A stretch of 64,000 nucleotides of DNA from an uncultured Bacilli bacterium (GCA_934176955.1 CAKPOS010000001.1:28310-92309); one strand, 5' to 3'. Counted from the first letter of the stretch, positions 36,055 to 63,995 are shown. Numbers and translations: made by a program. Notes: a model not told the origin generated them from the sequence alone.

Positions 36055-39000
36055 GTGAAAAAAGAAAATTATATTTTAGGATTAGATATTGGAATATCGT
36101 CTGTAGGTTGGGGATTATTAGCTTTAGATGAGAAAAATCAACCTTATAAGATTATTGATGTAGGAAGTCGAATCTTTTCTCCTGGAGAAGTAGAAAAAAC
36201 AGGAGATAGCAGGGCTAAAGAAAGAAGAGAAAAAAGAGGAATTAGGAGAAATATTAGAAGAAAAGAATTTCGACTTGATCGGGTAAGAAATCTATTATAT
36301 GAAGAAGGCTATTTAAAGGGAAATGTAACTAGTAATATTGTTTCAATAAAAAATGAAGAATTATCATTGTTATTTAATCATATGATTTGTCAATATTATC
36401 TTAATAAGAATACTAATCCTTATCGTTTGAAAGTAGAAGCGTTAGATAGAAAGCTAACAAATGAAGAATTATCAATAATATTAGTACATTATGCAAAGAA
36501 GAGAGGATATAAATCTAATCGTGAAGAAGCATCGGAAAATGATTCTGGGAAGGTATTAAGCGCTATTAAAGAAAATGAGAAAATAATGAATGAACATCAT
36601 TATCGTACTATTTCTGAAATGTACATAAAAGATGAAAAATTTAAAAATAAAATCAAAAATAGTCCTGGAGATTATAAGATTTCTGTAACGAATGAAATGT
36701 ATTTAGAAGAAATCAACAAAGTACTCGACAGTCAAATAAAATTTGGAGTAATTACTGATACTTTTAAAGATAAATACTTAGAAATATATAATTCTAGAAG
36801 AAGTTATGCTAAAGGACCTGGAGGCAATTCTCCTTATGGTGGGGATTTAATTGAAAGAATGACTGGAAAATGTAATTTTGATGGGAATCTGAGGGCACCT
36901 AAAAGAGCTTTTTCTTCAGAATTATATGTTGCATTAACAAAGTTAGTTAATCTAAAGTATAAAATTAATGATGGAGAATATAAAAGATTATCTAAAGAAG
37001 AAATCAGTTATATGATAGAAAAAGCTAAAGAAAAGAAAACAACAACATATAAGGATTTGATAAAAGTAATTGGAGAGGAAAATATAGAATTTAAAGAGTT
37101 ATCTCTATCTAAAAAAGAATATGGGAAATTAATTGAAAATTTAAAGAAAAAATTAAATATTGGAAAAGATAAAAAAGTGATTATTCATGAATTATCTAAT
37201 GAAGAGAAAGAGATTTACAATCAATTATATCATAATCAATTATATGATAAAACGTTAATAGAATTAAAAGGTTATCATGTATTAAAAGATAGTATAATAA
37301 AAGCTTATAGTAAAGATATTTGGGAAAAGGTTAAAGATAATGTAGAATTATTAGATGAACTTGCATTATATTGTACAAATTATAAAGTTGATGAAGACAT
37401 ACTAAATAAAATTAAAGAATCAGAAAATATAGATAATATATTTGAAGATATTCACTTTGTAGAATTGTTACCTAACTTTAAAGATCATTTAATGTTATCT
37501 ACAGAATTAATAAGAAAATTAATTCCTATTATGCTTGAAGGTAGTACATATGATAAGGCTATGGAAGAAATTGGATACAATCATTCTGATATAAACGGTG
37601 ATAAGGAAAAGAAAGATTTGTTAGTCCCTGTATGCGTTGATAGTAATATTACTAACCAAAGAGTAATTCGTTCTCTTACTCAAACTAGAAAAGTAATTAA
37701 TTCAATTATTAAAAAGTATGGAACTCCTAAAATTATTAATATAGAAACAGCTAGAGAACTTGCTAAAACTAGACAAGAAAGAAATGAAATAGCAAAAAAC
37801 AATGTAGAAAAGCAAGCTGAAAATGATAAAATTAAAAACCAATTAGTAGAATTAGGTTTATTTTCAAATCTTGATAAGATATCGAGTAATGACTTATTAA
37901 AGTATAAATTATGGAAAGAGCAAAATGAATTTTGTGGTTATAGCATGAAAAAAATATCGATTGAAGATTTATTTCAAAATAATATAGTTCAAATTGACCA
38001 CATATTACCTTATTCAAGAACTTATAATGATAGTTATTTTAACAAAACATTAGTATATACCAAAGAAAATCAAGAAAAAGGAAATAAGACACCATTTGAA
38101 TGGTTTGGTAAAACAGAAAAATGGGATGCATATGAAACATATATTAATCATTTGATGATATCTCAAAAGAAAAAAGATAATTATTTATTAAAGAAATTAG
38201 ATTTTGAGATGGAAAGAGAAATGAGAAATCAGAATCTTAATGATACTAAATATATTAGTAGAGAGTTATCTTCTTTAATTAAAGCATATTTAAATGTTGA
38301 AAAAGTAAATATGTATCCAGGTGCTATTACTTCTAAATTAAGAGCAAGATGGGGATTTAATCGACTTACTCATAGTTATTTATCAAAAACTTATAGATTA
38401 CCGGATGAGATGAAAAAAGATATTAATAAAGATAGAGATAATCATCTACATCATGCAATGGATGCTTTAGTAATCGCTTCTATAACACCATCATTACAAC
38501 AAAAGATAACGTTATATGAGAAGTTTAGTAGATATATTGATGGATTAACTGAATTACAAATTAAAAATATTCCATATATAAAGATAGATGATTCTGAAGG
38601 TCAATATTATAATGATAATACTGGTGAAATAGAAACTATTGATATAAAGGACTACATTAAAGAACAATTAGCAAATAATAATATATATTATAATAAGCAT
38701 AATATTAGTAAGTTAGAATTTCCACTTCCATATGAGGGATTTGATGAAGAAGCAAAGTTAAGAGTATACGAACAAGATTTAGACACTTTAAAATGGAATC
38801 TTCAATCATATAACACATACACAAAAAAAGATATAGAATCATTACATACATTAATACCATCTATTGCAAAATCTAAAATATCAGGTAAAATGCATGAAGA
38901 AACTTACTATGGAATAAAAGAATTTGGTAAAAATGAAGATAAAAAAGTATATAAGACTTTAAGGACACCTATTGAAAAGGTTAAAAGAAAAGACTTAGAA

Positions 39001-39690
39001 AATATTCCAGATAAATCGGGAGGTTCTAAAGAAATTTATGAAACTTTAGTAGAATGGTTTGGTGATTATGAAGTAGGAGAAGAAGTACTTAAAGCTAATG
39101 GAAATAAATATCCAGTATCTAAAAATGATAAAGAGCATAAAGAAATTAGAAAATTAAAATTATATAGTGAATATAAAAATACTGGCCACATGATTAATCA
39201 TAGTAATGTAGAAAAAGGTGGAATATATAGAGTTGATATATTTAAATCTAAAGATCAAGATGATGATAAATTATACTTTGCTGCTTATGATATATTGGAA
39301 ATAAAAAAAATTAATACATTAAGAGAAAAAAAGATGACAGATGATACCTTTACTATAAAATTAGATTATGGTCAAGGAAAAAATAATAGAATAATTTCGT
39401 ATACTGATATTGTAAATCATTATGATTTGTATCTTATTTTAAATAAAAATGATTTAATAAAAGTGATTACAAAGGATGGAAAAGAAAGCGTTGCTTATGT
39501 TGTTGGATGTTCTAGTGGAATGTTTGAAGTAAAAAGTAAATTAGGTGATGGATATGATATTATCGTTAATAGTTTTAATGAAAATAATATATTTAATAAG
39601 CAAAGAAAGCAATATGCAATAACTGTTTCTACAATTAAAAAAGTTAAAAAATTATCCATTAGTGTACTAGGAGAGATAAGTGGGTTATAG
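36055..39690 (+). CDS. cas9: type II CRISPR-associated endonuclease Cas9 (1211 aa)
   Basis: RuvC-I ILGLDIGISSVGWGLL, HNH block IDHILPYSRTYNDSYFNKTLVYTKENQEKGNKTPFEW, RuvC-III HHAMDALVIA. AGGAAAAATA RBS then GTG start. Confidence 0.92.
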   Translation: MKKENYILGLDIGISSVGWGLLALDEKNQPYKIIDVGSRIFSPGEVEKTGDSRAKERREKRGIRRNIRRKEFRLDRVRNLLYEEGYLKGNVTSNIVSIKNEELSLLFNHMICQYYLNKNTNPYRLKVEALDRKLTNEELSIILVHYAKKRGYKSNREEASENDSGKVLSAIKENEKIMNEHHYRTISEMYIKDEKFKNKIKNSPGDYKISVTNEMYLEEINKVLDSQIKFGVITDTFKDKYLEIYNSRRSYAKGPGGNSPYGGDLIERMTGKCNFDGNLRAPKRAFSSELYVALTKLVNLKYKINDGEYKRLSKEEISYMIEKAKEKKTTTYKDLIKVIGEENIEFKELSLSKKEYGKLIENLKKKLNIGKDKKVIIHELSNEEKEIYNQLYHNQLYDKTLIELKGYHVLKDSIIKAYSKDIWEKVKDNVELLDELALYCTNYKVDEDILNKIKESENIDNIFEDIHFVELLPNFKDHLMLSTELIRKLIPIMLEGSTYDKAMEEIGYNHSDINGDKEKKDLLVPVCVDSNITNQRVIRSLTQTRKVINSIIKKYGTPKIINIETARELAKTRQERNEIAKNNVEKQAENDKIKNQLVELGLFSNLDKISSNDLLKYKLWKEQNEFCGYSMKKISIEDLFQNNIVQIDHILPYSRTYNDSYFNKTLVYTKENQEKGNKTPFEWFGKTEKWDAYETYINHLMISQKKKDNYLLKKLDFEMEREMRNQNLNDTKYISRELSSLIKAYLNVEKVNMYPGAITSKLRARWGFNRLTHSYLSKTYRLPDEMKKDINKDRDNHLHHAMDALVIASITPSLQQKITLYEKFSRYIDGLTELQIKNIPYIKIDDSEGQYYNDNTGEIETIDIKDYIKEQLANNNIYYNKHNISKLEFPLPYEGFDEEAKLRVYEQDLDTLKWNLQSYNTYTKKDIESLHTLIPSIAKSKISGKMHEETYYGIKEFGKNEDKKVYKTLRTPIEKVKRKDLENIPDKSGGSKEIYETLVEWFGDYEVGEEVLKANGNKYPVSKNDKEHKEIRKLKLYSEYKNTGHMINHSNVEKGGIYRVDIFKSKDQDDDKLYFAAYDILEIKKINTLREKKMTDDTFTIKLDYGQGKNNRIISYTDIVNHYDLYLILNKNDLIKVITKDGKESVAYVVGCSSGMFEVKSKLGDGYDIIVNSFNENNIFNKQRKQYAITVSTIKKVKKLSISVLGEISGL

Positions 39691-40570
39691 GCAGGTTATT
39701 ATCAAAAAAAGTGAAAAATTACACTTTAAAGACAATCAATTAGTTATTGATAAAGAAGAAAATAGTACTAAAGTGCCTTTGGAAGATATAAGTTATATTT
39801 TAATTGAAGATTCAACAACTATTCTTACGACTAGATTACTTGCTGAATTAGGAAAAAATGCCATATCATTAATTGTATGTGATGAAAAATTTGAACCTAC
39901 GTCGATAATGTATCCCTATAATTATCATTTTAAACAATTAGATGTTTTTACCAATCAATTAGAAATTGATGATAGCATTAAAAATGAATTTTGGAATCAA
40001 ATAGTTAAGAGAAAAATTGAAAATAGTATTAGAGTATTGGAAATGACTTCCAAAGAAGAGTTTCCAATCTCTAAACTAAATGAATATATTAATGAAGTAA
40101 TAGATGGTGATTCAAAAAATAGGGAAGGATTAGCTGCAAAAATGTATTTTCGTAGTTTATTTGGAAGTGATTTTATAAGATTTTATGATGATAATATAAA
40201 TGCTGCTTTAAATTATGGATATACTATAATTGCAAGTGCTATTATCAGAAATTTAGCTGTATATGGACTAAATACTTATTTAGGAATTCATCATAGTTCT
40301 AAGATAAATAATTTTAATTTAGCATATGATTTTTTAGAACCATATCGATCTGTAGTTGATAAATTTATATATGATAATAAAGATGATATTGTATTACCAT
40401 TGTCTTTTGAATTTAGAAAGAAATTAATAAATTTACTAAATAAAGAAGTATTACACCAAAATAAAAAATATACTATTGAATATAGTATAGGATTATTAAT
40501 AAAAAGCTATATAAAATCTTTTTCTACTGGTGAAATAAAATTAGATTTACCTAGTATTATATATGAATAA
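39680..40570 (+). CDS. cas1: CRISPR-associated endonuclease Cas1 (type II)
   Basis: GYRQVIIKKSEKLHFKDNQLVI parallels type II Cas1 [22 protein letters not shown]. GTG start overlaps the cas9 stop by 11 nt. Confidence 0.85.
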   Translation: MGYRQVIIKKSEKLHFKDNQLVIDKEENSTKVPLEDISYILIEDSTTILTTRLLAELGKNAISLIVCDEKFEPTSIMYPYNYHFKQLDVFTNQLEIDDSIKNEFWNQIVKRKIENSIRVLEMTSKEEFPISKLNEYINEVIDGDSKNREGLAAKMYFRSLFGSDFIRFYDDNINAALNYGYTIIASAIIRNLAVYGLNTYLGIHHSSKINNFNLAYDFLEPYRSVVDKFIYDNKDDIVLPLSFEFRKKLINLLNKEVLHQNKKYTIEYSIGLLIKSYIKSFSTGEIKLDLPSIIYE

Positions 40571-42200: not shown

Positions 42201-42968
42201 GTTACAGGACCCTGTTAATTTTTAGTAATGTATAACAAGTTATTATAGTAAATGTTATTATACTACGTTACAGGACCCTGTTAATTTTTAGTAATGTATA
42301 ACAGGAACATGTTGAGTTATATCAACAAGTAAGTTACAGGACCCTGTTAATTTTTAGTAATGTATAACTAAACTAAATGAATTCAAGGGTTTACAAAGGT
42401 TACAGGACCCTGTTAATTTTTAGTAATGTATAACAGCTTGTTTAACTATCTCTTTTGATAATGGTTACAGGACCCTGTTAATTTTTAGTAATGTATAACT
42501 TAAAATGAACGAAAAAAGAGAAAGAATAGGTTACAGGACCCTGTTAATTTTTAGTAATGTATAACTGTTCACAACGTTTTACAATATACACAGCAGTTAC
42601 AGGACCCTGTTAATTTTTAGTAATGTATAACTAGAAGAAATTTAAAAGATAGGTAATTTACGTTACAGGACCCTGTTAATTTTTAGTAATGTATAACATG
42701 GGGTAAAAGTGGAGAATTTGTAAGCAAGTTACAGGACCCTGTTAATTTTTAGTAATGTATAACCACTTCAATTAAAATTGAAAGAGAGGTAAAGTTACAG
42801 GACCCTGTTAATTTTTAGTAATGTATAACTTTTGATAATATAAGTGATTATTTGTATAAGTTACAGGACCCTGTTAATTTTTAGTAATGTATAACTATCA
42901 CAAATAAGGCTAGTAATGTAAGTAAGTTACAGGACCCTGTTAATTTTTAGTAATTAGTAATGTATAAC
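42201..42968 (+). CRISPR. CRISPR array, 12 repeats / 11 spacers, repeat GTTACAGGACCCTGTTAATTTTTAGTAATGTATAAC (36 nt)
   Basis: Eleven identical repeats start at 42201, 42267, 42333, 42399, 42464, 42530, 42596, 42662, 42728, 42794, 42860. Spacers are 30 nt except spacer 4 (29 nt). The terminal repeat 42926-42968 carries a 7-nt TAGTAAT duplication. Confidence 0.95.
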
Positions 42969-50281: not shown

Positions 50282-51697
50282 CTAGATAATTTCTTTCTTT
50301 TCTAGAATATATCCTTTAGGATTTTCTTGATTCTTTTTCTTTAATGTTAGACTTTTATATGCTGCTGGTTCTTGACTAATTTTAGCAAATGGTTCAATAA
50401 AAAGACTATCTACACAGCCAATTAAAGCTCTTGCTCCTGTATCTTTTTTGATAGCTTCTTTGGCTAAATCTTGATAAACTTCTTCATCAATTTGTAATTT
50501 TATTTTTAGTTCATTTAAGATTTTTGTTTTAGATTGAATTGTTGTATTATGAGGATTTTTTAAAATTTGAATTAAATTTTTTTCTGTTAATGGATTTAGT
50601 TCAATGATATTAGGAAGTCTACCAATTAATTCTTTTTTGATTCCATATTGATATAAATCTTCTGTGGTAATTGGTTCTTTCTGTTTTATTAATGATTCTT
50701 TTTGTTGAAATCCTATTGTTTTTTTCTTTTCTTCTTTCTTTTTCCGTAGTCCAGTGAAAGCTCCTGAAGCAATTACGGTAATGTTTTTAGTACTTAAGGT
50801 AACATAATTAGGAAATAAAACATCTCCTAAATTAATTCTGTATTCTCCATCTTCTAAAAGTTTTAAGAGTTCATCTTGGATAGATGCTGTTCCTATTTGG
50901 GCATTAGCTTCTATGGTTGTACTAGCTTTTTTATCAATTTCATCTACAAAAATAATTCCTCTACTAGCTTTTGCAATATTATTATTTGCTTTTTCAATGA
51001 GTTGCTTTAAAATATCTTCGATATTTCCTCCTTGATATCCTGATGCTGTTAGTGATGTAGCATCTGTGATTACGGTAGGAACATTCAAACTTTTAGCAAT
51101 ATTTCTAATAATCTCTGTTTTTCCTACTCCTGTTGGTCCAATCAGTAAAATATTATTTTTTACTTCACTTTTAGAATTTTGCCATAGGATAGAAATAATA
51201 TCATCAATTGCTTTATCTTGACCAATGATTTTATCTTTTAGCTTAGTAACTAATTTTTTTGCATCAAATAATTCATTTCTTTTTAAAATTCTTTTGGCAA
51301 GATCAATATCTGGTTCTGTTATACAATAAGAATTAGACGATGTTAAAATATGTAACTCAACATTTTCATAATCTCCAACTTTAGGAATACAAAATCGATA
51401 TTTAAAATTTGATGTCGTTTCAAAATAGCTAAGAGCATAGTTTTTAATATATTCTTTGGGATATTTTTTGATTAATTTTTGATCTTCTTTTGGGATAACA
51501 ATATTTTGTCGAAGTCCATAACCATAGTTTTGTTCTAAATCTAACATGTAATTATATTTTTTTCCACTTATTGTAATGAATTCTTCTGTTGTTTCATCTT
51601 TTCTTCCAACAACAACATGATGAGGAGTATAAATAAATATTCCATTAGCATTTTTCTTCTTCTTAAAAATAATAGCTACTTCTAAATTAGTTTTCAT
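50282..51697 (-). CDS. ClpX/HslU-clade AAA+ ATPase with an unrecognised ~180-aa N-terminal domain
   Basis: Walker A ILLIGPTGVGKTEIIRNIAK (HslU-like GVGKTEI). DATSLTASGYQGGNIEDIL and Walker B GIIFVDEIDKK present. No ClpX zinc-ribbon. Overlaps the aspS stop by 11 nt. Confidence 0.6.
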   Translation of the reverse strand: MKTNLEVAIIFKKKKNANGIFIYTPHHVVVGRKDETTEEFITISGKKYNYMLDLEQNYGYGLRQNIVIPKEDQKLIKKYPKEYIKNYALSYFETTSNFKYRFCIPKVGDYENVELHILTSSNSYCITEPDIDLAKRILKRNELFDAKKLVTKLKDKIIGQDKAIDDIISILWQNSKSEVKNNILLIGPTGVGKTEIIRNIAKSLNVPTVITDATSLTASGYQGGNIEDILKQLIEKANNNIAKASRGIIFVDEIDKKASTTIEANAQIGTASIQDELLKLLEDGEYRINLGDVLFPNYVTLSTKNITVIASGAFTGLRKKKEEKKKTIGFQQKESLIKQKEPITTEDLYQYGIKKELIGRLPNIIELNPLTEKNLIQILKNPHNTTIQSKTKILNELKIKLQIDEEVYQDLAKEAIKKDTGARALIGCVDSLFIEPFAKISQEPAAYKSLTLKKKNQENPKGYILEKKEII

Positions 51698-53695: not shown

Positions 53696-54931
53696 CTATG
53701 TTTTATCTATTAAAGCCATTATTGCGTTTTTAATCGCAATCTTTCCATAGTTATAAGTTAGAGAACCTTGCTGATAGGCAATGTATGGTTCTCTTAATGG
53801 ACCATCACAAGATAATTCAATTGATGAACCTTGAGTAAATGTTCCTGCTGCCATAATCACTTGATCTTGATATCCTGGCATATCCCAAGGAATTGGTTTT
53901 ACATTAGCATCTATTGGACTTGATGCTTGGATTGCTTGGCAGTAGGCAATTAATTTTTCTTTATCGTGAAAAATAATATTTTGAACAATATCGGCTCTTT
54001 TTTCTTGATATTTTGGTTCTGTTTCATAACCTATTTTTTCTAGTAGATAGCTTGTTAAAATGGCTGTTTTTATTGCTGAATTTACAACTGATGGTGCTAA
54101 ATATAATCCTAGTAAAAATTGTTTATTTAGTCCTAAAGATGGTCCTACTTCTCTTCCCTCTCCTGGTACATTTAATCTTTCAGCACATAACTTAATTAAA
54201 TCTTTTCTTCCTGTAATATAAGCTCCGTTTGATGCCATTCCTGCTCCTAAATTTTTGATTAATGATCCTACTGCTAAGTCTGCTCCTACTTCGATTGGTT
54301 CTTTGGTATCAACAAATTCACAGTAGCAATTATCGACCATAATAATGACTTCTTGATCAACTTCTCTAATTTGTTTAATTCCTTCTTCTAAATCTTCAAT
54401 TAAAATACTTTTTCTAGTGGAGTATCCTTTACTTCTTTGAATTTCAATTAATTTTATTTTTTTCTCTTTCAGTACTTTTTTGATTTCTGGAATATTAAAA
54501 TGATTATCGATTAAATCAATTTGCTGATAGTTTATTCCATAAGATTTTAAAGAACTATCATTTTCTTGAATGCCTATTACCTCTTCTAGGGTATCATATG
54601 GTTTTCCTGTTATAGATAATAAAGTATCTCCTGGTCTTAGGCAAGCAAATAATGCTGTCGTTAAGGCGTGAGTACCAGAGATGAATTGGCTTCTGACTAA
54701 AGAATCTTCACTTTTAAAAATATCAGAATATACTTTTTCAATGGTATCTCTTCCTAAATCACTATACCCATATCCTGTTGTCATATTAAAACAAGTTTCA
54801 TTAACATTATTTTCTTTAAATGCTTTTAATACTTTTATAGAATTTTCTTCTTCTATTTTGTCATATTTGTAGTAAATATCTTTTAAATTCATTTCTGCTT
54901 CTTGCATTAAGTTTTCTATTTTTTCTTTCAT
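53696..54931 (-). CDS. PLP-dependent YnbB-family (aluminium-resistance / Cys-Met-metabolism-like) protein
   Basis: GYGYSDLGRDTIEKVYSDIF...VRSQFISGTHALTTALFACLRPGDTLLSITGKPYDTLEEVIG matches the YnbB/PF06838 conserved block. Confidence 0.6.
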   Translation of the reverse strand: MKEKIENLMQEAEMNLKDIYYKYDKIEEENSIKVLKAFKENNVNETCFNMTTGYGYSDLGRDTIEKVYSDIFKSEDSLVRSQFISGTHALTTALFACLRPGDTLLSITGKPYDTLEEVIGIQENDSSLKSYGINYQQIDLIDNHFNIPEIKKVLKEKKIKLIEIQRSKGYSTRKSILIEDLEEGIKQIREVDQEVIIMVDNCYCEFVDTKEPIEVGADLAVGSLIKNLGAGMASNGAYITGRKDLIKLCAERLNVPGEGREVGPSLGLNKQFLLGLYLAPSVVNSAIKTAILTSYLLEKIGYETEPKYQEKRADIVQNIIFHDKEKLIAYCQAIQASSPIDANVKPIPWDMPGYQDQVIMAAGTFTQGSSIELSCDGPLREPYIAYQQGSLTYNYGKIAIKNAIMALIDKT

Positions 54932-54944
54932 ATTGTGACCTTCT

Positions 54945-55214
54945 TTATAAAATATTTGTAAATAAGTAATATAAAATTATTCCTCCTAGAACAATTCCTA
55001 GGGCTACTTCTATTAAAGTTGAAGTAAGAAGACTAAGAATAATATAGAGAATTAGTGATATTAAAGAAATTGGTGTTAGATAATTTAAGCAAGTAATTAA
55101 TATATTTAATATACTAGGGATATTAATAGAAAATAATTGTATTGCTAAAGTGAGGATAATTAGCATAGTTTCAACAATAATGATTTTTTTTAAAATAAAT
55201 TTTGCTGTTTTCAT
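54945..55214 (-). CDS. small hydrophobic membrane protein (89 aa)
   Basis: Two or three TM segments. Abuts proS. Confidence 0.3.
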   Translation of the reverse strand: MKTAKFILKKIIIVETMLIILTLAIQLFSINIPSILNILITCLNYLTPISLISLILYIILSLLTSTLIEVALGIVLGGIILYYLFTNIL

Positions 55215-56644
55215 TAATATTGGATTCCCCAGATAACGAGATGTTTAGCTGGTTTACCACAGCATACACAAACTTCATCAATAGGTTTTTCTTCTTCCAT
55301 GATACATCTAGATTTACAGCCCTTTATTTCTTTGATTTTTTCTTCACATTTCTCTTCCCCACACCACATGGCTTTAATAAAACCTGGTTGTGTATTTAGA
55401 ATATTTTCGATATCTTTTAAGTTATGCGCTTCAAAAGTTAAACTTTTTCTTCTTTCTAATGCTTTTTTATACATATCATTTTGGATTGTTTCTAATAGAG
55501 TTTTTGTATATTTAACGATATCCATTTCGGATAAGGTTTCGGTTAATTTTTCTCTTGTATCTCTTCTTGCAAATGTGATTTGATTATTTTCTAAGTCTCT
55601 CTCCCCTATTTCAATACGAATAGGGATTCCATTTACTTCTGCTTCTGCAAATTTGAATCCAGGAGATTTTTCCGTATTATCGATATAAGTTATAATATCG
55701 TTTTGCTGTAATTTTTCTTGAATTTCTAATGCTAAGTTTGTTACTTTTTCATTTTTTCCAATAGGAATAATTACCACTTGTTTCGGTGCAATTCTTGGTG
55801 GTAAAACTAATCCATAATCATCAGAATGAACCATAATTAGTCCACCTATCATTCTTGTTGTTGTTCCCCAAGAGGTTTGGTAAGGATATTCCTCTTTGTT
55901 TTCTTTGTTGGTAAATTTAACATTATATGCTTTGGTAAATTTTTGTCCGAAATAATGGCTAGTTCCTGATTGTAGAGCAACGCCATTATACATTAAGGCT
56001 TCGTTGGTTAAAGTATATTCTGCTCCTGCAAATTTTTCTTTTTCTGTTTTTTTTCCTTTTATGGAAGGAATCGCTAAAATTTCATTATGGAACCAATGAT
56101 AAACATCCATCATTTTTGCTGTTTCTGCTTCTGCTTCTTCTTTTGTAGAATGAATCGTATGTCCTTCTTGCCATAAAAATTCACGACTTCTTAAAAATGG
56201 TCTTGTTTCTTTCTCCCATCTTAATACATTACACCACTGATTATATAGTTTTGGTAAATCTCGATGAGAAGATATATGTGTTGCATAATAGTCACAAAAT
56301 AATGTTTCACTAGTTGGTCTTATACATAATCTTTCTTCTAGTTTCTTTTGTCCTCCTTCTGTTACCCAAGCAACTTCTGGTGCAAAGCCATTTACTAAAT
56401 CACTTTCCTTTTTTAGTAAATTTTCTGGAATAAGTAGGGGCATTTGACAGTTAATGTGTCCTAATTTTTTAAATTCTTTATCTAATATAGATTGCATTTT
56501 CTCCCATATTGCATATCCGTTTGGTTCGATTACTATACATCCTTTTACTGATGAATAATCTGCTAAGTGAGCTGCTCTAACAACGTCTGTATACCATTTG
56601 GCAAAATCGATATCTCTACTAGTAATTGCTTTATTTTTTGGCAT
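55214..56644 (-). CDS. proS: proline--tRNA ligase (archaeal/eukaryote-like type)
   Basis: 476 aa. N-terminal DFAKWYTDVV. Class II motifs. C-terminal zinc-binding CxxC...CxxC. Confidence 0.9.
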   Translation of the reverse strand: MPKNKAITSRDIDFAKWYTDVVRAAHLADYSSVKGCIVIEPNGYAIWEKMQSILDKEFKKLGHINCQMPLLIPENLLKKESDLVNGFAPEVAWVTEGGQKKLEERLCIRPTSETLFCDYYATHISSHRDLPKLYNQWCNVLRWEKETRPFLRSREFLWQEGHTIHSTKEEAEAETAKMMDVYHWFHNEILAIPSIKGKKTEKEKFAGAEYTLTNEALMYNGVALQSGTSHYFGQKFTKAYNVKFTNKENKEEYPYQTSWGTTTRMIGGLIMVHSDDYGLVLPPRIAPKQVVIIPIGKNEKVTNLALEIQEKLQQNDIITYIDNTEKSPGFKFAEAEVNGIPIRIEIGERDLENNQITFARRDTREKLTETLSEMDIVKYTKTLLETIQNDMYKKALERRKSLTFEAHNLKDIENILNTQPGFIKAMWCGEEKCEEKIKEIKGCKSRCIMEEEKPIDEVCVCCGKPAKHLVIWGIQY

Positions 56645-56757
56645 TTTATCTCCTCTTTTCTTTATGTGTTTTTATTATACTATAAAAGAATCAAAAAAAA
56701 AAGAGTTTCTCTTCCTTTTAAATTACTGATAATACAAAACTTATGATATACCAGTTC

Positions 56758-58272
56758 TTAATCTTTTTTCTTTTTTAAAACTATAGAAGAATCAACCGCT
56801 ATCTCAATAGCTTCATCAAGCATTTGATTAATATTTTCTTTATAAATTAATAATGCCTTTTTAGTAATCTCCCTAACTTCATCTAATTCTATTCCTAAAA
56901 AGTTAGCTATTGCTTCAGTAGTAAAGTATTTTTCATCTACATATCCTAACTTCAAACAAACTATTATTGCCTCTTTAGGAGTAAACAATTTTAATATTTC
57001 ATCAAATTTTGGAGATCTCATTAATTTTAAAACATTTAAATAATCTTCTTTTTCCATCTTAGTCCCCTCATTACCTAAATTTATTTTTGATTCTTTCGCA
57101 ATTTGCGAACTAGAACTTAATTGAACAATTTCTGCATCTGTTCTTTCTTCTACCATAGAAGAGATATTTATATTTGAATCTTCCTGTTGCTTTTTATCAT
57201 ATTCTTTTCCTTTTTTCCTTGAATTAAAAAGTAACTTTTTCATTTTAGGAATTAAACTATTATAAAATTTTCTTGTTTCCTCTTTTCCCCATGTTGAGGA
57301 AATAATCGGATTATCTAAATCCTTACCATACCTTAATTCAATTAAATTCTTTTCATCTTCTGTTAACTTGACTAACATAACATCAATTTCATCTCTAGAA
57401 TATTCTTTCAAATATTCATATATTGTTTTTATTTTTCTCTGTTTCATTTTTTTAACAGACCTTTCTTCAATAATTTTATTTTTTCGATACCTCATCATTT
57501 CACTTTGACCAACAGATTCCTTTTCCTGTTGAAAATCTATTGTAGAAGAAGTCGTAGATACTTGTAATGGAAGTTGACCAGACACCTCATCTATCAAATG
57601 ATTACTAGATAATCCATTAATCTCTATTATGCCACTTTTCCTTAACTGTTCCCCTATCTTTGATATATTCTTTGTTATTATTCTTGATACATATGATTGA
57701 GAAATATTAAACTTTTCTGCAATTTCTTTTTGATTATATGCATGATCCCCAATAAATCCAAAATAAAGCAAAACAATATCCCTATTTGGAAGTGGTAATT
57801 GATAAACAACTTCTCTTATTTCAGCAAAAAATTCCCTTTTTTCATAATCTGAGACAAAATCAGAACCTTCATCTGCTAAAACATCTTCCAACTTTAGTTG
57901 ATTTCCCGATTGATCTGTTGTAATTAGACTCTCTAAACTTTTATCTAAAGTAAACTTTTTTGTTTTCTTTAAAAACATTAATATTTCATTATCAATGCAC
58001 TTAGCTGCATAAGTAGAAAATTTAAATTTTAAATCAATATTAAATGTATCCACACTCTTGATTAATCCTATTAATCCAACCGAAAACAATTCCTCTAAAT
58101 CCGTATAATGAGAAAATTTTGTATTTACTTCGTTTAAAACTAAAAGAATATTATGATAAATGATTTTCTCTCTTGCTTTCACATCTCCATTATTCATTTC
58201 CTTAAAATAATGATATAATTCTTCCTTTTCAAATGACTTTGGAAATCTTGAACTAATATATAATTTTCCCAA
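56758..58272 (-). CDS. SigE/SigK-family sigma factor with a ~270-aa C-terminal extension containing two extra region-4-like repeats
   Basis: Region 2 STYAAKCIDNEILMFLKK. First region 4 LPLPNRDIVLLYFGF...QKEIAEKFNISQSYVSRI. Extra modules LTEDEKNLIELRYG and FTPKEAIIVCLKLGY...EAIANFLGIELDEVREITKKAL. Confidence 0.7.
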   Translation of the reverse strand: MGKLYISSRFPKSFEKEELYHYFKEMNNGDVKAREKIIYHNILLVLNEVNTKFSHYTDLEELFSVGLIGLIKSVDTFNIDLKFKFSTYAAKCIDNEILMFLKKTKKFTLDKSLESLITTDQSGNQLKLEDVLADEGSDFVSDYEKREFFAEIREVVYQLPLPNRDIVLLYFGFIGDHAYNQKEIAEKFNISQSYVSRIITKNISKIGEQLRKSGIIEINGLSSNHLIDEVSGQLPLQVSTTSSTIDFQQEKESVGQSEMMRYRKNKIIEERSVKKMKQRKIKTIYEYLKEYSRDEIDVMLVKLTEDEKNLIELRYGKDLDNPIISSTWGKEETRKFYNSLIPKMKKLLFNSRKKGKEYDKKQQEDSNINISSMVEERTDAEIVQLSSSSQIAKESKINLGNEGTKMEKEDYLNVLKLMRSPKFDEILKLFTPKEAIIVCLKLGYVDEKYFTTEAIANFLGIELDEVREITKKALLIYKENINQMLDEAIEIAVDSSIVLKKKKD

Positions 58273-58394
58273 TTATCTCTCCTACTTTCTAAAAGTAACT
58301 TTTAATTTTTTTCAATAAAGAAAATACTTATTTAAATCACTAGTAATGTTAAATAACAAAACTAGCACAAAGCAATTATATTACTAAATTATTC

Positions 58395-59249
58395 TCATAA
58401 TTTCTTACTTTTTCTTTTAGCAACTATTCTTTCCTCTATTATACAATTATCTTGAACACCATTATTCTGATAACCAGATTCCATTTCTTGTTGAACATTC
58501 ACCACTGAAACACCAGACGATAATTGACTAGACTCTATGTTTTCTATGTTCCCATTAATCATTCCTGTTGTCTCTATCAAGCCAAATTTCTTTAATTGTA
58601 ATTCTATTTTTTTCACATTTCTTATGATCACTCTCGATATATATGATTGAGAAACATTAAACTTTTCTGCAATTTCTTTTTGCATATATGTATGATCATC
58701 GATAAACCCAAAATAAAGCAAAATAATTTCTCTATCACGTTCTGGTAACTGATAAACAATTTTTCTAATTTCATCACAAACAACTTTTTTCTCATATTCT
58801 GAAGCAATATCAGTTTTCTTATCTACTAAAACATCCATTAATATTTGCACATTTCCAAATTTATCTTCCATTCCTACTGGCACATCCAAACTTTCATCTA
58901 AAATAAACTTTTTCCTTTTTTTCAAAAACATTAAAATTTCATTATCAATGCACTTAGCTGCATAAGTAGAAAATTTAAAATTTAAATCAATATTAAATGT
59001 ATCCACACTTTTGATTAATCCTACTAATCCGACAGAAACTAATTCTTCTAAATCAGAATTTTGAGAAAATTTTAATCTCACCTCATTTAAAACTAATCGA
59101 ATATTATGCTGGATAAAATTATCTCTTGCTTGTTCTCTACAATATCTTCCCTCTCTAAAATAATATTCAATCTCTTCATCACTTAACGGTTCCAATAAGT
59201 CCGAAGTAATAAATATGTTTTTCATTTGAAATTTATTTAATATTTTCAT
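58395..59249 (-). CDS. SigE/SigK-family sporulation-type sigma factor (284 aa)
   Basis: LVGLIKSVDTFNIDLNFKFSTYAAKCIDNEILMFLKK is near-identical to the neighbouring gene. Region 4 LPERDREIILLYFGF...QKEIAEKFNVSQSYISRV. Confidence 0.75.
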   Translation of the reverse strand: MKILNKFQMKNIFITSDLLEPLSDEEIEYYFREGRYCREQARDNFIQHNIRLVLNEVRLKFSQNSDLEELVSVGLVGLIKSVDTFNIDLNFKFSTYAAKCIDNEILMFLKKRKKFILDESLDVPVGMEDKFGNVQILMDVLVDKKTDIASEYEKKVVCDEIRKIVYQLPERDREIILLYFGFIDDHTYMQKEIAEKFNVSQSYISRVIIRNVKKIELQLKKFGLIETTGMINGNIENIESSQLSSGVSVVNVQQEMESGYQNNGVQDNCIIEERIVAKRKSKKL

Positions 59250-59406
59250 TATTTCCCCCCTCTTTTAAAACTAAATTTTAAAAAGTATACTTATAATACC
59301 ACCTTTTCCTATGATTTACAACTCTTTTTTTAAATTCATAACTAAAAAAAGAGTTGAATACTCTATCCAGAATATGCAACTCTTTATAACAAAAAATATT
59401 TCTTCC

Positions 59407-59838
59407 TCAAGATAAATAATTATCTTTAATAATTCTTACAAACTTTGGTCCCGTCTTAAGTACTAGAATAATTCCTAAAACAGTAGCAATATATCCAATA
59501 TATCCACTTCTTTTATTTCCTACAGATTCTGGAGATAGAAAATCATAATACAAAGTCATTTTATCTCCTATATTTACATCTTTTTCATAATTATCAATTG
59601 TAGCATTATAATTATTATTATTAGCAATATAAGATAAATTTACAGCTCTTTTTTCAACATTTCCATCAGCCGTTTTAGCAATAGTTACCCCTGCTACGGT
59701 TCCTTCTGCACTAATAACTTTTAATTTAAAATTTTCTGTTTTTAAAAGTAATATTCCAAATACTGTTAATACAGTTCCTACAATACAAAGAACCATAATA
59801 GGAATATTTAATTCTTCTTTTTTTCTCTGTTTTCCCAT
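59407..59838 (-). CDS. DUF3592-like membrane protein
   Basis: N- and C-terminal TM helices flank a soluble beta-rich segment. 143 aa. Confidence 0.4.
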   Translation of the reverse strand: MGKQRKKEELNIPIMVLCIVGTVLTVFGILLLKTENFKLKVISAEGTVAGVTIAKTADGNVEKRAVNLSYIANNNNYNATIDNYEKDVNIGDKMTLYYDFLSPESVGNKRSGYIGYIATVLGIILVLKTGPKFVRIIKDNYLS

Positions 59839-59958
59839 CTTATTCTCCTCCTATTTTAAGTATAGCAAAACTTAAGAAAAAAAACAATCTAATTTTTAGT
59901 TTTCTTCCATAATTTTAGGATTAATTCTATAGAAGTATTTTTCGTTCATAAAAAAACT

Positions 59959-61008
59959 TTATGAATTGGTAGGAATTTTTAATGTTTGCCCTATTTGTAA
60001 TAGATTTGTGTTTAAATTGTTTAAATTTTTAATTTTATCTACTGTTGTGTTATATTTTTTGGCAATACTGTATAAACTATCTCCACTTACTACTTTATAA
60101 TTTATTGTGTTATTGGAAGAATTACTTTTAATTTTTAGAATCTGTCCTATTTGCAGTAAGTTAGAATTTAAGTTATTTAATTTTTTTAAGCTGTCTACTG
60201 TAGTGTTATATTTCTTGGCAATACTATATAGACTATCTCCTTTTTGTACAGTATAAGAAATATTTTTAATTGAATCAGTTGTTGAAGTATTTTTAGGTAG
60301 TTTTAATACTTGACCAATACTTAGATTATTGGTAGAAAGATTATTTAATGTTTTTAAATCATTTACACTAGTGTTATATTTTTTAGCAATACTATACAAA
60401 CTATCTCCTTTTTTAACGATATAATAATTATTATTAATTGGAGTATAAGGTACTTTTAGGTAAGTTGCTAAGGCAATAACAATTGCTTCTCCTATATTTT
60501 CTAGATTATTTTTTAAATAAGAGGCTTCTTTTTCATTATCAATATTTCCATAATAGATAATTATACTTTCATTATTAGCAGTATCTCTAATTAATTTATT
60601 ATAATCTTTTGATGTATCACTAGGTAACCTTCTTTGATAGTATTTTTCTACTTTTAAACCAATTTTTTCAAGATTTTCTTGAACTAATTTAGCAAGAGTA
60701 TTGCTATTTCTTAAGGAATAGATAATTTCAGCATTTTTTCCCCCTGTCGTTAAGGCATTTGAAATAACAATAACATTATTTCCTTTTCCATAAGTGGATT
60801 GAATTTTTTTTACCCGATCATCAATTGAAAGAGTATCATCTTTATCTCTTGTTAGATAAGTTTTAATATTTAAGTCTTTTAATCTTTTATAAATATATTT
60901 ACTTAAGTCTAGGTTATAGTTTTTTTCAATGATGCCATGAATATTACTTCCAATGTCCTCTCCTCCTCGATAAGGATCGATGATTACTTTCTTTTCTATT
61001 CTTTCCAT
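59959..61008 (-). CDS. N-acetylmuramoyl-L-alanine amidase (Amidase_3) with three C-terminal LysM repeats
   Basis: IDPYRGGEDIGS...LTRDKDDTLSIDDRVKKIQS amidase_3 N-terminus. Three copies of Y.V..GDSLYSIAKKYNT.V..LK.LNNL..N.L.IGQ.LK.P, which also appear as three ~130-bp tandem DNA repeats. Confidence 0.8.
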   Translation of the reverse strand: MERIEKKVIIDPYRGGEDIGSNIHGIIEKNYNLDLSKYIYKRLKDLNIKTYLTRDKDDTLSIDDRVKKIQSTYGKGNNVIVISNALTTGGKNAEIIYSLRNSNTLAKLVQENLEKIGLKVEKYYQRRLPSDTSKDYNKLIRDTANNESIIIYYGNIDNEKEASYLKNNLENIGEAIVIALATYLKVPYTPINNNYYIVKKGDSLYSIAKKYNTSVNDLKTLNNLSTNNLSIGQVLKLPKNTSTTDSIKNISYTVQKGDSLYSIAKKYNTTVDSLKKLNNLNSNLLQIGQILKIKSNSSNNTINYKVVSGDSLYSIAKKYNTTVDKIKNLNNLNTNLLQIGQTLKIPTNS

Positions 61009-61056
61009 AAAATATCACCTAGTTTATTTTATGTTTTTTAGTTAATTTTGGTTTGT

Positions 61057-61998
61057 TTATTCTATTTTAAAACTAGTTTCATCTAAAAAAAGATAGTTTT
61101 CGTGATATTTCAATTCTCTTACTAAACGAAATAGAGCATCATCTTTGGCTTTGGCCTCTAACATAATATCAACATCTTGATTTTTTTGTTTTAGAATGTT
61201 TAAAAATTGAATAAAAGAATTGGTATCAATATAGTCATTATGGGCTCGGTATTCTCTTTTGTTTTTAGGAGAACTAAAATGTATTTTTGGTGTCATTCCT
61301 TTTTTCTTCCAAGTGAGAAAGATATCGTTTAAGTAAGTGAACAATTCTTTGGATGTGGGATTGCATTGATGATGATGATAGTCTAAGACAACTGGAATAT
61401 TTAACTTTTTAGCTAGAAATAAACAATCTTCTATGTTAAATACTTTATCATCATTTTCTATGGCGATAATTTCTTTTAAATGATTGGGAAGGTTTTCAAA
61501 GGTATGAATAAAACGGGATAAAGAATTAGTTTTACCAAATGCATTACTTCCTATGTGAAGGAGAATAATTTTATCTTGAATATCTAATATTTTGAGTAAT
61601 TGGTAATGATATTCTAATATGTTAATTGTTGATGTGATTACTTCTTTTTTTACACTATTTAAGACACAATACTGATTGGGATGGAAATCTACTCTTATTT
61701 TACTTTTCTGAAGAATTGAAGTTATTTTTTTATAGTAAGGAAGGAATTTTTCTAAATAATCAAAAGAAACATTGGGATGTGTTGCTAAGGGGATTATATT
61801 AGAAGAGATTCGATAAAAATGAATATGATTTTTATCGTTATAGATTAATGTTTGATAAAGAGCTTCTAAATTAGAAATAATAATTCTCTCTAATTTTTCT
61901 TGGTCTTTTTCTTGTACCCATGTAGTATAAGAATAAGGAGTTGAAGTAGATTCCTTTATCGATTTACTTATTGCAACGTAGCCTAATCTTATTATCAT
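61057..61998 (-). CDS. uvsE: UV damage endonuclease UvdE
   Basis: MIIRLGYVAISKSI start and TIM-barrel UVDE pattern. 313 aa. Confidence 0.7.
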   Translation of the reverse strand: MIIRLGYVAISKSIKESTSTPYSYTTWVQEKDQEKLERIIISNLEALYQTLIYNDKNHIHFYRISSNIIPLATHPNVSFDYLEKFLPYYKKITSILQKSKIRVDFHPNQYCVLNSVKKEVITSTINILEYHYQLLKILDIQDKIILLHIGSNAFGKTNSLSRFIHTFENLPNHLKEIIAIENDDKVFNIEDCLFLAKKLNIPVVLDYHHHQCNPTSKELFTYLNDIFLTWKKKGMTPKIHFSSPKNKREYRAHNDYIDTNSFIQFLNILKQKNQDVDIMLEAKAKDDALFRLVRELKYHENYLFLDETSFKIE

Positions 61999-62123
61999 TT
62001 TTTCTTCACCTATATTTATTATGATAATCTTTTTTTCTCTCTATGCTAAAAATTCGCGTAATTTAATACTACTAATTAAGACTAAAAAAAGCATAGATTT
62101 ATCTATAATCCTATAGACTAAAT

Positions 62124-62494: not shown

Positions 62495-63394
62495 TTATTT
62501 CTTTTGGTCTTCTTTAGGAAAATAATCTAATATTAATTTATCAGTGATAAATAGATAATCATAAAAAGTTCTAATTTTTTGGCATAGTTCTAATTCATTA
62601 GTATTAAAATCAATTTTTTGAGGAATGGAGATAAGAGCAGAGAAAAGTATTTTTTCTTCTTTTAACATAGGATAATGCATTTCATAAGTATGAAGAAGAC
62701 TACAAAAATCAAAGATTTGATAATAATTTTGATAAAAATTGACTAAGTCATAGATAGGGATATCTTTTTTACTTTTATTCCAGCTAATTAAGTAAGGCTT
62801 TTGTTCAAGTAAGTAATGTTCTAATTTTAGATTGTTATGAATTTGCGTTATACGAACTCTTTTCTTTTCAGAAATGATTTGATACCATTTATCGATTTGA
62901 TTTTTGGAATAATTTAGCGCTAAAAATAGTTTAGAGATATTTCTAATAAAAAGATAAGAAGCTGGAGACATATACTCTTCTCTTTCGATAAGTTCTGTAA
63001 TATCTTGATAATAATTTATTAAATATTCAATTCTATTCTTTGTATTTTCATAAAGTTCTTTGTAAGTATTTTCGTCAATTTCTTTATAAAAAGTTGTTTT
63101 GCTGTGAAGAAGTGTAATTAATTTCATGATATCATTAGCTTTTTCTTCTTGTTGTAAGGGAACATCTTCGATATAACGATAAATATCATAGTTTTTGGTT
63201 TGATAAAGAATTTCTGGGAAATAATCAAAAGATCTAGACTTTAAATATTTATATAAAGGGCCTAGATCATGTTCTTTTTTTTTGATGACAAATATTTCTT
63301 TCTCAGTTTCTATCATGCGAATATTGTTTTTGATGGTTATTTTTTTTGTGATGATATGATTATTTGTGAATAATTCTCGAATTTCTTTATTCAT
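62495..63394 (-). CDS. CotS/YsxE-family spore-coat kinase-like protein
   Basis: IHNNLKLEHYLL resembles the CotS-family catalytic-loop region. Sits downstream of a SpoVID-like gene, as in B. subtilis spoVID-ysxE. Confidence 0.5.
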   Translation of the reverse strand: MNKEIRELFTNNHIITKKITIKNNIRMIETEKEIFVIKKKEHDLGPLYKYLKSRSFDYFPEILYQTKNYDIYRYIEDVPLQQEEKANDIMKLITLLHSKTTFYKEIDENTYKELYENTKNRIEYLINYYQDITELIEREEYMSPASYLFIRNISKLFLALNYSKNQIDKWYQIISEKKRVRITQIHNNLKLEHYLLEQKPYLISWNKSKKDIPIYDLVNFYQNYYQIFDFCSLLHTYEMHYPMLKEEKILFSALISIPQKIDFNTNELELCQKIRTFYDYLFITDKLILDYFPKEDQKK

Positions 63395-63995
63395 TTTTAT
63401 TGGGAATAATTAGTTTAGTACCAGGTTTTATTTCTTCTAAATTGTTATATAAGCTTATGGTTTCTTTGTCAATATGATATTTTTCCATAATACTATCAAT
63501 CGTATCTTGTTCTTTTACAATATAGACATAATAAGTAATATAAGTATCAGAATTATCAATATTTTCAAATAAATTAAATTCTTGTTTAGTCATTTGCTTT
63601 TGATGATTATCTTCAAAAATTATAGTATCTTTTGGAGGAGGCATAATCTCAGGAATGATTTTCTCTTCTCTTTCTTCTTTTTCTTGTGGTTTATTTTCTG
63701 GTTCTGGGAAGAAAGAAGTATCTATTTTTTCTTCATCAAGAGAAGGAATTTCAATGGTCATTTCTTCTTTTTCTTTCTCTTCTTCTTTTAGAGGTAAAAC
63801 AATTTCTTCTTCTTTCTCTTTTTCTCCTTCGATATAAAGATCGATATTGACTTGGAGAGATTCATTATTGACTACTTCATAATAAAAATTATCAATATCA
63901 ATACTTAAAGTAGAAGGAATATATTTGCTATCTAGTTCAATATCAAAGGGAATCTTGAAGTTAAAATTCTCCCTGTTGATGGAAGCTTCTGTCAT
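63387..63995 (-). CDS. SpoVID-like sporulation protein with a C-terminal LysM domain
   Basis: C-terminal LysM YIVKEQDTIDSIMEKYHIDKETISLYNNLEEIKPGTKLIIP. Glu/Lys-rich middle. N-terminal block TLSIDIDNFYYEV. Start ATG at 63995, close to the window edge. Confidence 0.4.
   Translation of the reverse strand: MTEASINRENFNFKIPFDIELDSKYIPSTLSIDIDNFYYEVVNNESLQVNIDLYIEGEKEKEEEIVLPLKEEEKEKEEMTIEIPSLDEEKIDTSFFPEPENKPQEKEEREEKIIPEIMPPPKDTIIFEDNHQKQMTKQEFNLFENIDNSDTYITYYVYIVKEQDTIDSIMEKYHIDKETISLYNNLEEIKPGTKLIIPNKNE

Follow-up and report, generated by a model that had tools for sequence, protein, structure and literature searches.

Sigma factors are among the best-studied bacterial proteins, and to our knowledge regulatory extensions at their C-termini are known mainly from the extracytoplasmic function (ECF) class. 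In the ECF41 and ECF42 groups, in SigJ and in fusions with SnoaL_2 or TPR domains, a C-terminal domain modulates the very sigma factor that carries it, in place of a separate anti-sigma factor. At the opposite terminus, primary sigma factors possess region 1.1, a flexibly tethered, acidic autoinhibitory domain. One example of an ECF sigma factor with a cis-acting C-terminal extension is discussed in PMC7730460. Here we describe a pair of sigma factor genes at positions 56,758 to 59,249 of a 64,000-nucleotide (nt) stretch of DNA from an uncultured Bacilli bacterium (GCA_934176955.1 CAKPOS010000001.1:28310-92309), the whole of which is referred to below as the window; one of the two encoded proteins carries a C-terminal tail built from derivatives of sigma region 4.

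The two genes form a tandem pair of group-3, SigK/E-like sigma factor paralogues that is specific to its lineage, found in an uncultured, low-GC human-gut Firmicute that probably belongs to the class Bacilli; the closest named proteins come from 'Bacilli bacterium' metagenome-assembled genomes (MAGs). The 504-amino-acid (aa) member of the pair is a minimal representative of a large family of sigma factors with region-4-derived C-terminal tails, and the 284-aa member is tail-less. With both genes on the minus strand, transcription reaches the 284-aa gene before the 504-aa gene, which makes the latter the downstream copy, rather than the upstream one that an initial annotation of this DNA had taken it to be. 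The features of the pair are listed here in the direction of transcription, with confidence in the predicted structure given as the predicted local distance difference test score (pLDDT).

58395-59249, minus strand: tail-less SigK/E-like sigma factor, 284 aa, ATG start, consisting of sigma2, sigma3, sigma4 and about 60 further residues
58273-58394, minus strand: spacer of 122 nt between the two sigma genes, containing a 7-bp inverted repeat, TAGTAAT...ATTACTA
56758-58272, minus strand: tailed sigma factor, 504 aa, in the order sigma2, sigma3, sigma4, linker 1, module m1, linker 2, module m2, basic C-terminus
57631-58227, minus strand: sigma core of the 504-aa protein, residues 16-214 (sigma2 16-106, sigma3 107-160, sigma4 161-214)
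57937-58086, minus strand: near-identical patch, residues 63-112, regions 2.2-2.4, matching 58890-59039 in the 284-aa gene
57439-57630, minus strand: linker 1, residues 215-278, predicted to be disordered (pLDDT below 50 at 220-278) and poorly conserved
57217-57438, minus strand: module m1, residues 279-352, KTIYEYL...LTEDEKNLIELRYGKDLDNP...KFYNSLIPKMKKLL, pLDDT 85-96
57064-57216, minus strand: linker 2, residues 353-403, predicted to be disordered, of low complexity, pLDDT 30-34
56788-57063, minus strand: module m2, residues 404-495, with a complete RpoD-type region-4 fold
56758-56787, minus strand: basic C-terminus SIVLKKKKD and stop codon, delimited from the tail alignment

The existence of a long tail behind a complete region 4, as originally described for the 504-aa protein, is borne out, and it amounts to about 290 aa. 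A search with residues 248-504 found 61 proteins, and the alignment of these homologues divides the tail into two conserved modules parted by variable, low-complexity linkers, with an 'L-x-K-K'-like motif recurring at the C-terminus across the family. When AlphaFold2 was applied to this tail alignment, both modules were modelled confidently (block pLDDT 83-97) and the linker was disordered. The full-length model has the appearance of beads on a string, with a predicted template modelling score (pTM) of 0.29, pLDDT of 87-95 in sigma2 and sigma4, and pLDDT below 50 at residues 220-278 and 357-403.

Module m2, with the consensus KxDYxKxLELLRTPxFxQMLxxLSxKEAIIISLKLGYVDGKYFSTxSIAxFLGIExxEVIExTKKxLLLYKENINxFID, is a complete region-4 domain according to three independent methods. 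Comparison of profiles with hhalign aligned it to the family's own region 4 over 60 columns (probability 96%, E 2.6e-9), while controls of m2 against regions 2 and 3 gave no match; a search of PDB sequences with the m2 profile returned region 4 of RpoD/SigA (1tty_A, E 1.6e-7; Thermus thermophilus SigA, 2.2e-7); and the top Foldseek matches of its model in the PDB were all sigma-A region 4, such as 1ku3 (root-mean-square deviation 1.4 A over 55 columns) and 6ono_D (1.1 A over 53), with deviations from region-4 chains spanning 1.1-1.8 A over 53-59 columns. Module m1, with the consensus KLQTIYEYFxxYTKEQIDEMLxKLSEEExxLIxLRYGxDLxNP...KFYGxLIPKMKRLL, corresponds instead to the region-4.1 half only. 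Its hhalign match to the family's own region 4 covers 28 columns (probability 85%, E 6.5e-6), its Pfam matches cover positions 1-22 of 50 in the r4 model and positions 1-27 in r4_2, and the Pfam gathering score is reached for m1 solely when summed over the repeats of multi-m1 proteins. In the AlphaFold model, m1 retains both region-4.1 helices together with a long helix at its C-terminal end, and a loop replaces the first helix of the helix-turn-helix, making it a degenerate derivative of region 4 that lacks a helix-turn-helix and falls short of a complete domain. The earlier proposal of two additional region-4 modules thus stands for m2 in full, and for m1 as a half domain only. Profiles were needed to establish this: with single sequences, Pfam matches of the tail halves to Sigma70_r4, r4_2 and r3 were all below threshold (E 0.007-0.18), those to region 4 being insignificant (E 0.035-0.18), so that the domain check recommended in the initial annotation gave significant results for m2 with profile methods and insignificant ones with single-sequence Pfam.

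Both charge and residue composition set m2 apart from a region 4 that reads the -35 element. Its mean net charge across the family is -3.9 (isoelectric point, pI, 4.9), compared with +4.2 (pI 9.3) for the family's own region 4, and in the window protein the values are -5 and pI 4.8; m1 has a family mean net charge of +1.5 and a pI of 9.2 in the window protein. At the recognition helix the m2 consensus reads E-E-E-V-I-E-T-T-K-K, against T-R-E-R-I-R-Q-I-E in RpoD. At the positions which we take to be the -35 contact residues of RpoD, R584/E585/R586/R588/Q589 in Escherichia coli numbering, the m2 consensus has E/E/V/E/I, which is not a basic recognition helix. The window protein has L/D/E/R/E, with E at the preceding Thr position, so that only the equivalent of R588 (in VREIT) is kept. 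Judged by these substitutions, m2 has lost most of the residues that read the -35 element and would not be a normal -35 reader. The suggestion that the 504-aa protein is a sigma factor with three -35-recognition helix-turn-helix modules therefore does not hold, since m1 has lost the helix-turn-helix, and m2 is acidic with its contact residues mostly replaced.

Relative to described systems, m2 shares with region 4 of the primary sigma factors (RpoD/SigA; 1ku3, 1tty, 1rio) both its fold and the signature L-S-x-K-E...L-x-L-G-Y-x-D-G-K, but it is acidic, has lost the Arg and Gln contacts to the -35 element, bears a conserved C-terminal helix extension (YKENINxFID) and is a second, C-terminal copy behind a functional region 4. 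Stand-alone Sigma70_r4 proteins of phages and Firmicutes, which are small region-4 folds and the top viral fold-search matches to the tail, resemble it in fold only (E ~7e-3, 17-18% identity). The ECF41, ECF42, SigJ, SnoaL_2 and TPR fusions are alike in joining a sigma core to a self-modulating C-terminal domain; their core, however, is of the sigma2-sigma4 type, whereas here the core belongs to group 3 (or is RpoD-like in relatives) and the tail consists of region-4 derivatives, set on long disordered linkers, that can be repeated up to about 20 times. The parallel between m2 and region 1.1 is one of functional analogy only, as the fold differs, the position is at the opposite terminus and m2 is not known to enter the DNA channel. 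No anti-sigma family was recognised by Pfam or NCBIfam in the tail or the whole protein, where all matches were of sigma type, helix-turn-helix type or at chance level, though an anti-sigma fold of a new kind could go unnoticed in such scans, and neither a SnoaL nor a TPR domain was found in the tail, which had region-4-type matches only. A weak resemblance of m1 to the C-terminal domain of MG284/MPN403 in NCBIfam (27 bits against a cut-off of 37.3 bits) provided no lead.

The 504-aa open reading frame (ORF) is genuine, as many independent assemblies contain it at this length. Its exact sequence is encoded on 6 contigs, its 90% identity cluster has 23 members that include 11 distinct full-length 504-aa variants from separate assemblies, and the architecture is common to dozens of classified homologues; a fusion of two genes by a sequencing error near 57550, raised at the outset as a possible flaw, is not what these sequences show. 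The two modules also stand out by their conservation. Within the species cluster 4.3% of sites vary in m2 and 6.8% in m1, with 14% in sigma2, 15% in sigma4 and 14-17% in the linkers; identity to distant tailed homologues is 45-65% for m2, 50-72% for m1, 49-63% for sigma2, 39-63% for sigma4 and 3-33% for the linkers (3-27% in linker 1 and 4-33% in linker 2). By these measures, the tail modules are constrained at least as strongly as the sigma core.

Proteins of this kind follow a common grammar, [sigma]-(m1)n-m2, in which at least one m1 and then a terminal m2 follow the sigma core, with disordered linkers between them. The 504-aa protein matches a hidden Markov model (HMM) of the tail, built solely from proteins called without a sigma part, over residues 278-503 at 276.8 bits, and is thus a family member. 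When 1.84 billion cluster representatives (clusters at 50% identity) were searched exhaustively with the profile, 1,751 clusters matched at E <= 1e-3, of which 1,130 also did so at E <= 1e-10 and 506 even at E <= 1e-30. In a census of architectures, made by applying the module HMMs to the best 150 matches together with those found earlier, the commonest full-length form was sigma-m1-m2, and sigma-m1, sigma-m2, sigma-(m1)2-7-m2 and arrays of at least 16 m1 modules were also present, the repeat number n reaching 16-20. For instance, P0128 (1,415 aa) combines an RpoD-like sigma factor with about ten m1 and one m2, and P0143 (1,607 aa) joins a minimal sigma factor to about twenty m1-like repeats and one m2; P0252 (1,862 aa) has a similar layout. 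Such giant proteins are not assembly artefacts, since P0143 recurs at exactly 1,607 aa in 11 variant sequences on separate assembled contigs. The tail has been found on at least three sigma bodies, namely SigK/E-like, RpoD-like (P0128, L005 and P0044) and minimal (P0143), which argues that its function is independent of sigma class. No Pfam or NCBIfam model covering the tail was found, nor did a literature search find a paper describing the [sigma]-(m1)n-m2 architecture.

In L008 (3353-8003) and also in L009, four adjacent genes encode five sigma domains: a 250-aa sigma factor, a 618-aa sigma-m1-sigma-m1 protein, a 432-aa sigma-m1-m2 protein and a 228-aa sigma factor, all four with a similar basic terminal motif (NTLKRSK-like). 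Tailed and tail-less sigma factors are thus mixed in the L008 array, and tandem duplication, fusion and tail loss are therefore recurrent in this radiation. The 618-aa protein is unusual in its own right, being a double sigma factor with two complete cores in one polypeptide. Tails without an attached sigma factor were considered as a separable partner protein, an idea withdrawn in part as at least two of them derive from fused genes, either as artefacts or through a frameshift. In L005, the apparent stand-alone tail exists only because an RpoD-like-(m1)n-m2 gene is broken by a run of N. In L004 (1989-2017), the reading frames for the sigma part and the tail share 29 nt and would be joined by the removal of one A from an A8 tract; three other members of the same 90% cluster have an uninterrupted ORF of 497 aa for this gene. 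The A8 variant may be an error of homopolymer sequencing, a product of phase variation, or a site of transcriptional slippage giving tailed and tail-less isoforms.

A phage origin of the tail was likewise considered and rejected, since a scan of 2.9 million viral contigs with the tail profile found no relative and the fold search of BFVD returned generic region-4 proteins only. A separate observation concerns the tailed sigma factor P0016 (408 aa), the gene for which adjoins those for a phage-type integrase, thyX, thymidylate kinase and an FtsK/DUF87 ATPase (L012 1-6227). Mobile elements may therefore carry some members of the family, although the scan of the viral contig collection yielded none.

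Both window proteins belong to the sigma-70 family. Against Pfam cut-offs of about 24 bits, the 504-aa protein scores 37.2 bits for Sigma70_r2 and 53 bits for Sigma70_r4, and the 284-aa protein 47.5 and 34.7 bits; against TIGR02937 (cut-off 42.9 bits) they score 89.1 and 75.5 bits, respectively. In NCBIfam the best models for both are SigK and then SigE, spanning the whole sigma core; residues 8-212 of the 504-aa protein, for example, align to positions 26-230 of 235 in the SigK subfamily profile at 173.5 bits. All such scores nevertheless lie far below the membership cut-offs. For SigK (TIGR02846 and NF004471), they are 165.5 against 298.65 and 173.5 against 252 bits for the 504-aa protein, and 160.1 against 298.65 and 167.2 against 252 bits for the 284-aa protein; for SigE (TIGR02835 and NF006158), they are 136 against 348.6 and 146.5 against 339. 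The SigF, SigG and SigB models score only 72-74 bits against 321-457, with the best stretch restricted to region 2, and as the core matches group-3 models end to end, region 3 included, the proteins are not ECF sigma factors with an extension. The related proteins from MAGs that PGAP/NCBI name SigK are only about 40% identical.

The likeness to SigK and SigE extends to the region-2.4 motif FSTYAAKCIDNEILMFLKK, which is nearly the same there and which, as previously reported, can be read in both translations of the pair. Apart from their scores and the C-terminal tail of the 504-aa protein, the window proteins differ from SigK and SigE in possessing neither a pro-sequence, given that neither ORF can be extended upstream, nor a nearby processing gene. 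The family N-terminus, F-I-x-x-x-L-P-x-P-L-S, aligns with what we take to be the mature N-terminus of B. subtilis SigK and SigE; some clostridial SigK proteins likewise lack a pro-sequence. Neither spoIIGA nor sigG is present among the neighbours of the pair, so the spoIIGA-sigE-sigG order is absent, and the earlier view that this is not a sigE-sigG pair agrees both with this and with the much weaker scores for SigF and SigG. A 'sporulation sigma' label is not established for the pair, on account of the scores below SigK and SigE cut-offs, the missing pro-sequence and the lack of a spoIIGA neighbour.

The two genes are less similar than was at first thought. The 284-aa and 504-aa proteins share 54% identity over 282 residues by BLASTP, and a codon-level comparison gave 55% identity in protein and 70% in DNA. 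Only in a patch at residues 63-112, in regions 2.2-2.4, does a sliding window reach 90-97% identity in protein and 92-96% in DNA, with third codon positions 87% identical; outside the patch third positions are 33-77% identical. As identity is high solely in the patch and third positions are low elsewhere, the duplication is not recent, and on these comparisons the pair represents an older duplication with one homogenised tract. Of the initial statement that the genes are near-identical, at about 90% over regions 2-3, and recently duplicated, only the identity of regions 2.2-2.4 survives. The patch is probably a gene-conversion or recombination tract. The database protein P0270 resembles the 284-aa type up to the patch and is identical to the 504-aa protein after it, the switch lying inside the 92-96% tract; it is either a true recombinant of tandem paralogues or an assembly chimera (its contig is 1.4 kb long), and whichever its origin, the switch point marks the tract as a site of exchange. 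Region 2.4 is identical in the two window proteins, and their region-4.2 recognition helices, SQSYVSRII and SQSYISRVI, are nearly so.

The alignment of the paralogues continues past region 4 over about 60 weakly conserved residues, to residue 281 of the 504-aa protein. The C-terminal extension of the 284-aa protein, put at about 55 residues in the initial annotation, is thus present, comprises about 60 residues and is a homologue of linker 1. It terminates exactly at the start of m1: IIEERIVAKRKSKKL and a stop codon align with IIEERSVKKMKQRKI followed by KTIYEY, where m1 begins. In a neighbour-joining tree of sigma domains, with the hybrid P0270 set aside, the two window proteins group most closely with each other, and the next neighbours of the pair include tailed, sigma-m2 and tail-less proteins. 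Orthologues of the 284-aa protein, of 274-285 aa, are present in related strains, and its best non-orthologous matches are mostly tailed proteins of 441-497 aa. Because these nearest non-orthologues are mostly tailed and the C-terminus is homologous to linker 1, the 284-aa gene seems to have lost a tail; the sequences suggest that a tailed gene was duplicated in situ and that the copy upstream in transcription then became tail-less.

The downstream copy has a different fate in two close strains. Contigs L015 and L016 have the order 143-aa gene, tail-less sigma factor gene, proS, with flanks 94-98.6% identical to the window, and the 504-aa gene is absent except for its upstream spacer and last 15 codons (IAVDSSIVLKKEKD, then the stop codon), both of which are kept. 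Comparison of L015 3402-3799 (also L016) with window positions 56805-58290 shows this to be a clean loss.

Taken as a whole, the pair is best explained by a single sigma specificity that exists in two forms, with a tail that acts as a protein-protein regulatory appendage and does not read DNA, a reading to which we give a probability of about one half. On this account, the 284-aa and 504-aa proteins would recruit RNA polymerase to promoter sets that coincide or overlap, and the tail would regulate through contacts with the sigma factor or with RNA polymerase rather than by recognising DNA. Holoenzyme structures show just one region-4 interaction that depends on neither DNA sequence nor sigma class, namely that with the beta-flap tip helix and region-4-directed regulators. 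Modules m1 and m2 may have retained this class-independent protein-binding surface, that is, the groove for the beta-flap tip helix and for such regulators, and could thereby serve as tethered decoys or extra anchors that modulate engagement of the sigma factor with core polymerase or a partner. A tethered decoy or anchor is preferred because that contact alone is independent of DNA sequence and sigma class. Of one sigma specificity, the organism would then possess a tailed version under regulation and a tail-less version free of it. A broader proposal, possible at best, is that this constitutes a new mode of sigma regulation, in which region-4 decoys compete for, or multiply, contacts with the beta flap or regulators, tuned by repeat number and by recombinational loss and gain of tails, with poly-A slippage as a further conceivable route to tail loss, across at least three sigma classes in the gut Firmicute radiation.

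Several observations weigh against a regulatory appendage of this kind. The full-length AlphaFold model (pTM 0.29) contains no confident contact between tail and sigma core. Conservation of the flap-binding groove could not be told apart from that of the hydrophobic core. The clean deletion of the tailed gene in strains with almost unchanged flanks means that the tailed copy, and hence the tail, is dispensable there. Finally, the single Arg kept in VREIT and the mildly basic character of m1 (+1.5) leave room for the tail to make some contact with nucleic acid.

A rival idea, which goes back to the initial annotation, is that the tail is an additional DNA-binding element, with m1 and m2 contacting DNA upstream of -35, at an extended element or through non-specific wrapping, and so altering promoter specificity or stabilising complexes at AT-rich promoters. 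The full helix-turn-helix fold of m2, the Arg retained at an RpoD contact position in the window protein, the basic m1 (pI 9.2) and extreme C-terminus (LKKKK) of that protein, and long flexible linkers that would permit upstream reach are all compatible with it. We nonetheless regard it as unlikely, given that m2 is acidic family-wide (mean net charge -3.9, pI 4.9) with a recognition helix consensus that differs from the contact residues of RpoD, m1 has lost its first helix-turn-helix helix, and m1 arrays, which reach 20 copies, carry on average almost no net charge. Slightly more doubtful again is a C-terminal pro-domain or, as the initial annotation also had it, a fused anti-sigma factor, which would keep the sigma factor inactive or tethered until a protease cut the disordered linker, yielding a product equivalent to the 284-aa paralogue and replacing the N-terminal pro-sequence of SigK and SigE. 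This would fit two non-extendable ORFs that begin at the presumed mature N-terminus, a linker 1 of about 60 aa that is predicted to be disordered, a paralogue that ends exactly at the m1 boundary, and the repeated coexistence of tail-less and tailed forms. There is, however, no protease gene conserved nearby, no match of the tail to an anti-sigma family and no predicted docking of the tail on sigma2 or sigma4, and both the occurrence of the same tail on RpoD-like sigma factors and the arrays of 10-20 m1 are hard to reconcile with a simple pro-peptide.

Repeat numbers that vary from 0 to about 20 on flexible linkers are typical of multivalent scaffolds, and along with the conserved basic C-terminal motif they raise the prospect of a tail that binds other copies of its modules or a cell structure, thereby clustering holoenzymes or placing them at the membrane, septum or forespore; since no transmembrane segment, known localisation domain or conserved neighbour gene was found, we hold this to be improbable. 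Least credible by far is that the tail is the product of mis-assembly or of two fused genes, or else a decaying, functionless remnant of repeat shuffling. It is true that some stand-alone tails are artefacts, arising from the run of N or one extra A in the A8 tract, and that the 504-aa gene is missing from close strains, but the identical ORF occurs on 6 contigs with 11 full-length variants, no part of the protein varies less than the modules, and more than 1,100 clusters share the architecture.

The window is chromosomal, with the housekeeping genes mutS, tig, greA, murD, aspS, proS, pheST, ddl and ppdK, and the immediate neighbours of the sigma genes are proS and the following gene.

59407-59838, minus strand: predicted membrane protein, 143 aa, directly upstream of the 284-aa gene

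This membrane protein matched no NCBIfam family, and its gene lies beside a sigma gene only in very close relatives (L015 and L016) and is missing in other lineages, so that a functional link to the sigma pair is uncertain; across the eight lineages compared, there was no conserved neighbour gene. In L015, a serine recombinase gene stands where the window has its amidase/uvdE region upstream. A scan of the genome contigs with the 504-aa protein returned just two distant region-2 matches, in a Clostridia MAG and a TM6 MAG.

With respect to expression signals, the 284-aa gene has a strong ribosome-binding site and is preceded by a hairpin 3' of the previous gene, and the start context of the 504-aa gene is AGGAG-N7-TTG. 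The 122-nt spacer between them is 87% conserved in L015, itself without the 504-aa gene. A scan for intrinsic terminators found none in the locus, the spacer included, and a promoter scan found 15 promoter-like sites where 20.1 were expected, which is no excess over chance. Inspection by eye revealed no SigK/E-type -10 motif (CATA...TA) before either sigma gene, and Rfam had no match in 54000-62000.

A spoVID-like gene (202 aa) and a ysxE-like gene (299 aa) overlap on the minus strand at 62495-63995, 3-5 kb upstream of the sigma pair, in an order that resembles what we take to be the B. subtilis arrangement. Both fall below NCBIfam cut-offs, at 25 against 170 bits and 94 against 264 bits, and as gene-content evidence they are weak; the capacity of the host to sporulate is plausible but unproven. 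The remainder of the window contains the following features of separate interest. A type II CRISPR-Cas (clustered regularly interspaced short palindromic repeats) locus at 36055-40570 and 42201-42954 encodes Cas9 (1,211 aa, with HNH and RuvC_III) and Cas1, and about 1.6 kb beyond the cas genes lies an array of about 11 copies of the 36-nt repeat GTTACAGGACCCTGTTAATTTTTAGTAATGTATAAC, separated by spacers of roughly 30 nt. At 50282-51697 on the minus strand, a 471-aa ClpX-like AAA+ protein (215 bits against a cut-off of 359) matches the ClpX models from residue 137-140 on, and in place of the usual N-terminal region has about 135 aa that are matched by no listed NCBIfam model. An ISL3-family transposase gene is found at 14196-15566, between tRNA synthetase and nucleoside-metabolism genes, and a 635-aa protein with three SpaA/prealbumin-fold domains (22652-24559) is probably a Gram-positive surface protein or pilin-like adhesin.

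In the family described here, complete cores of several sigma classes carry degenerate versions of their own region 4. One consequence is for annotation, as tailed genes would pass as 'SigK' or 'sigma-70 family', and split or truncated forms as separate genes. If it is true that the tail acts as a decoy or anchor for region-4 contacts, it would represent a new principle of sigma regulation in a compact, testable system, for which the window offers a natural pair of tailed and tail-less proteins with the same region 2.4 and nearly the same 4.2 helix, alongside strains that exist without the tailed copy.

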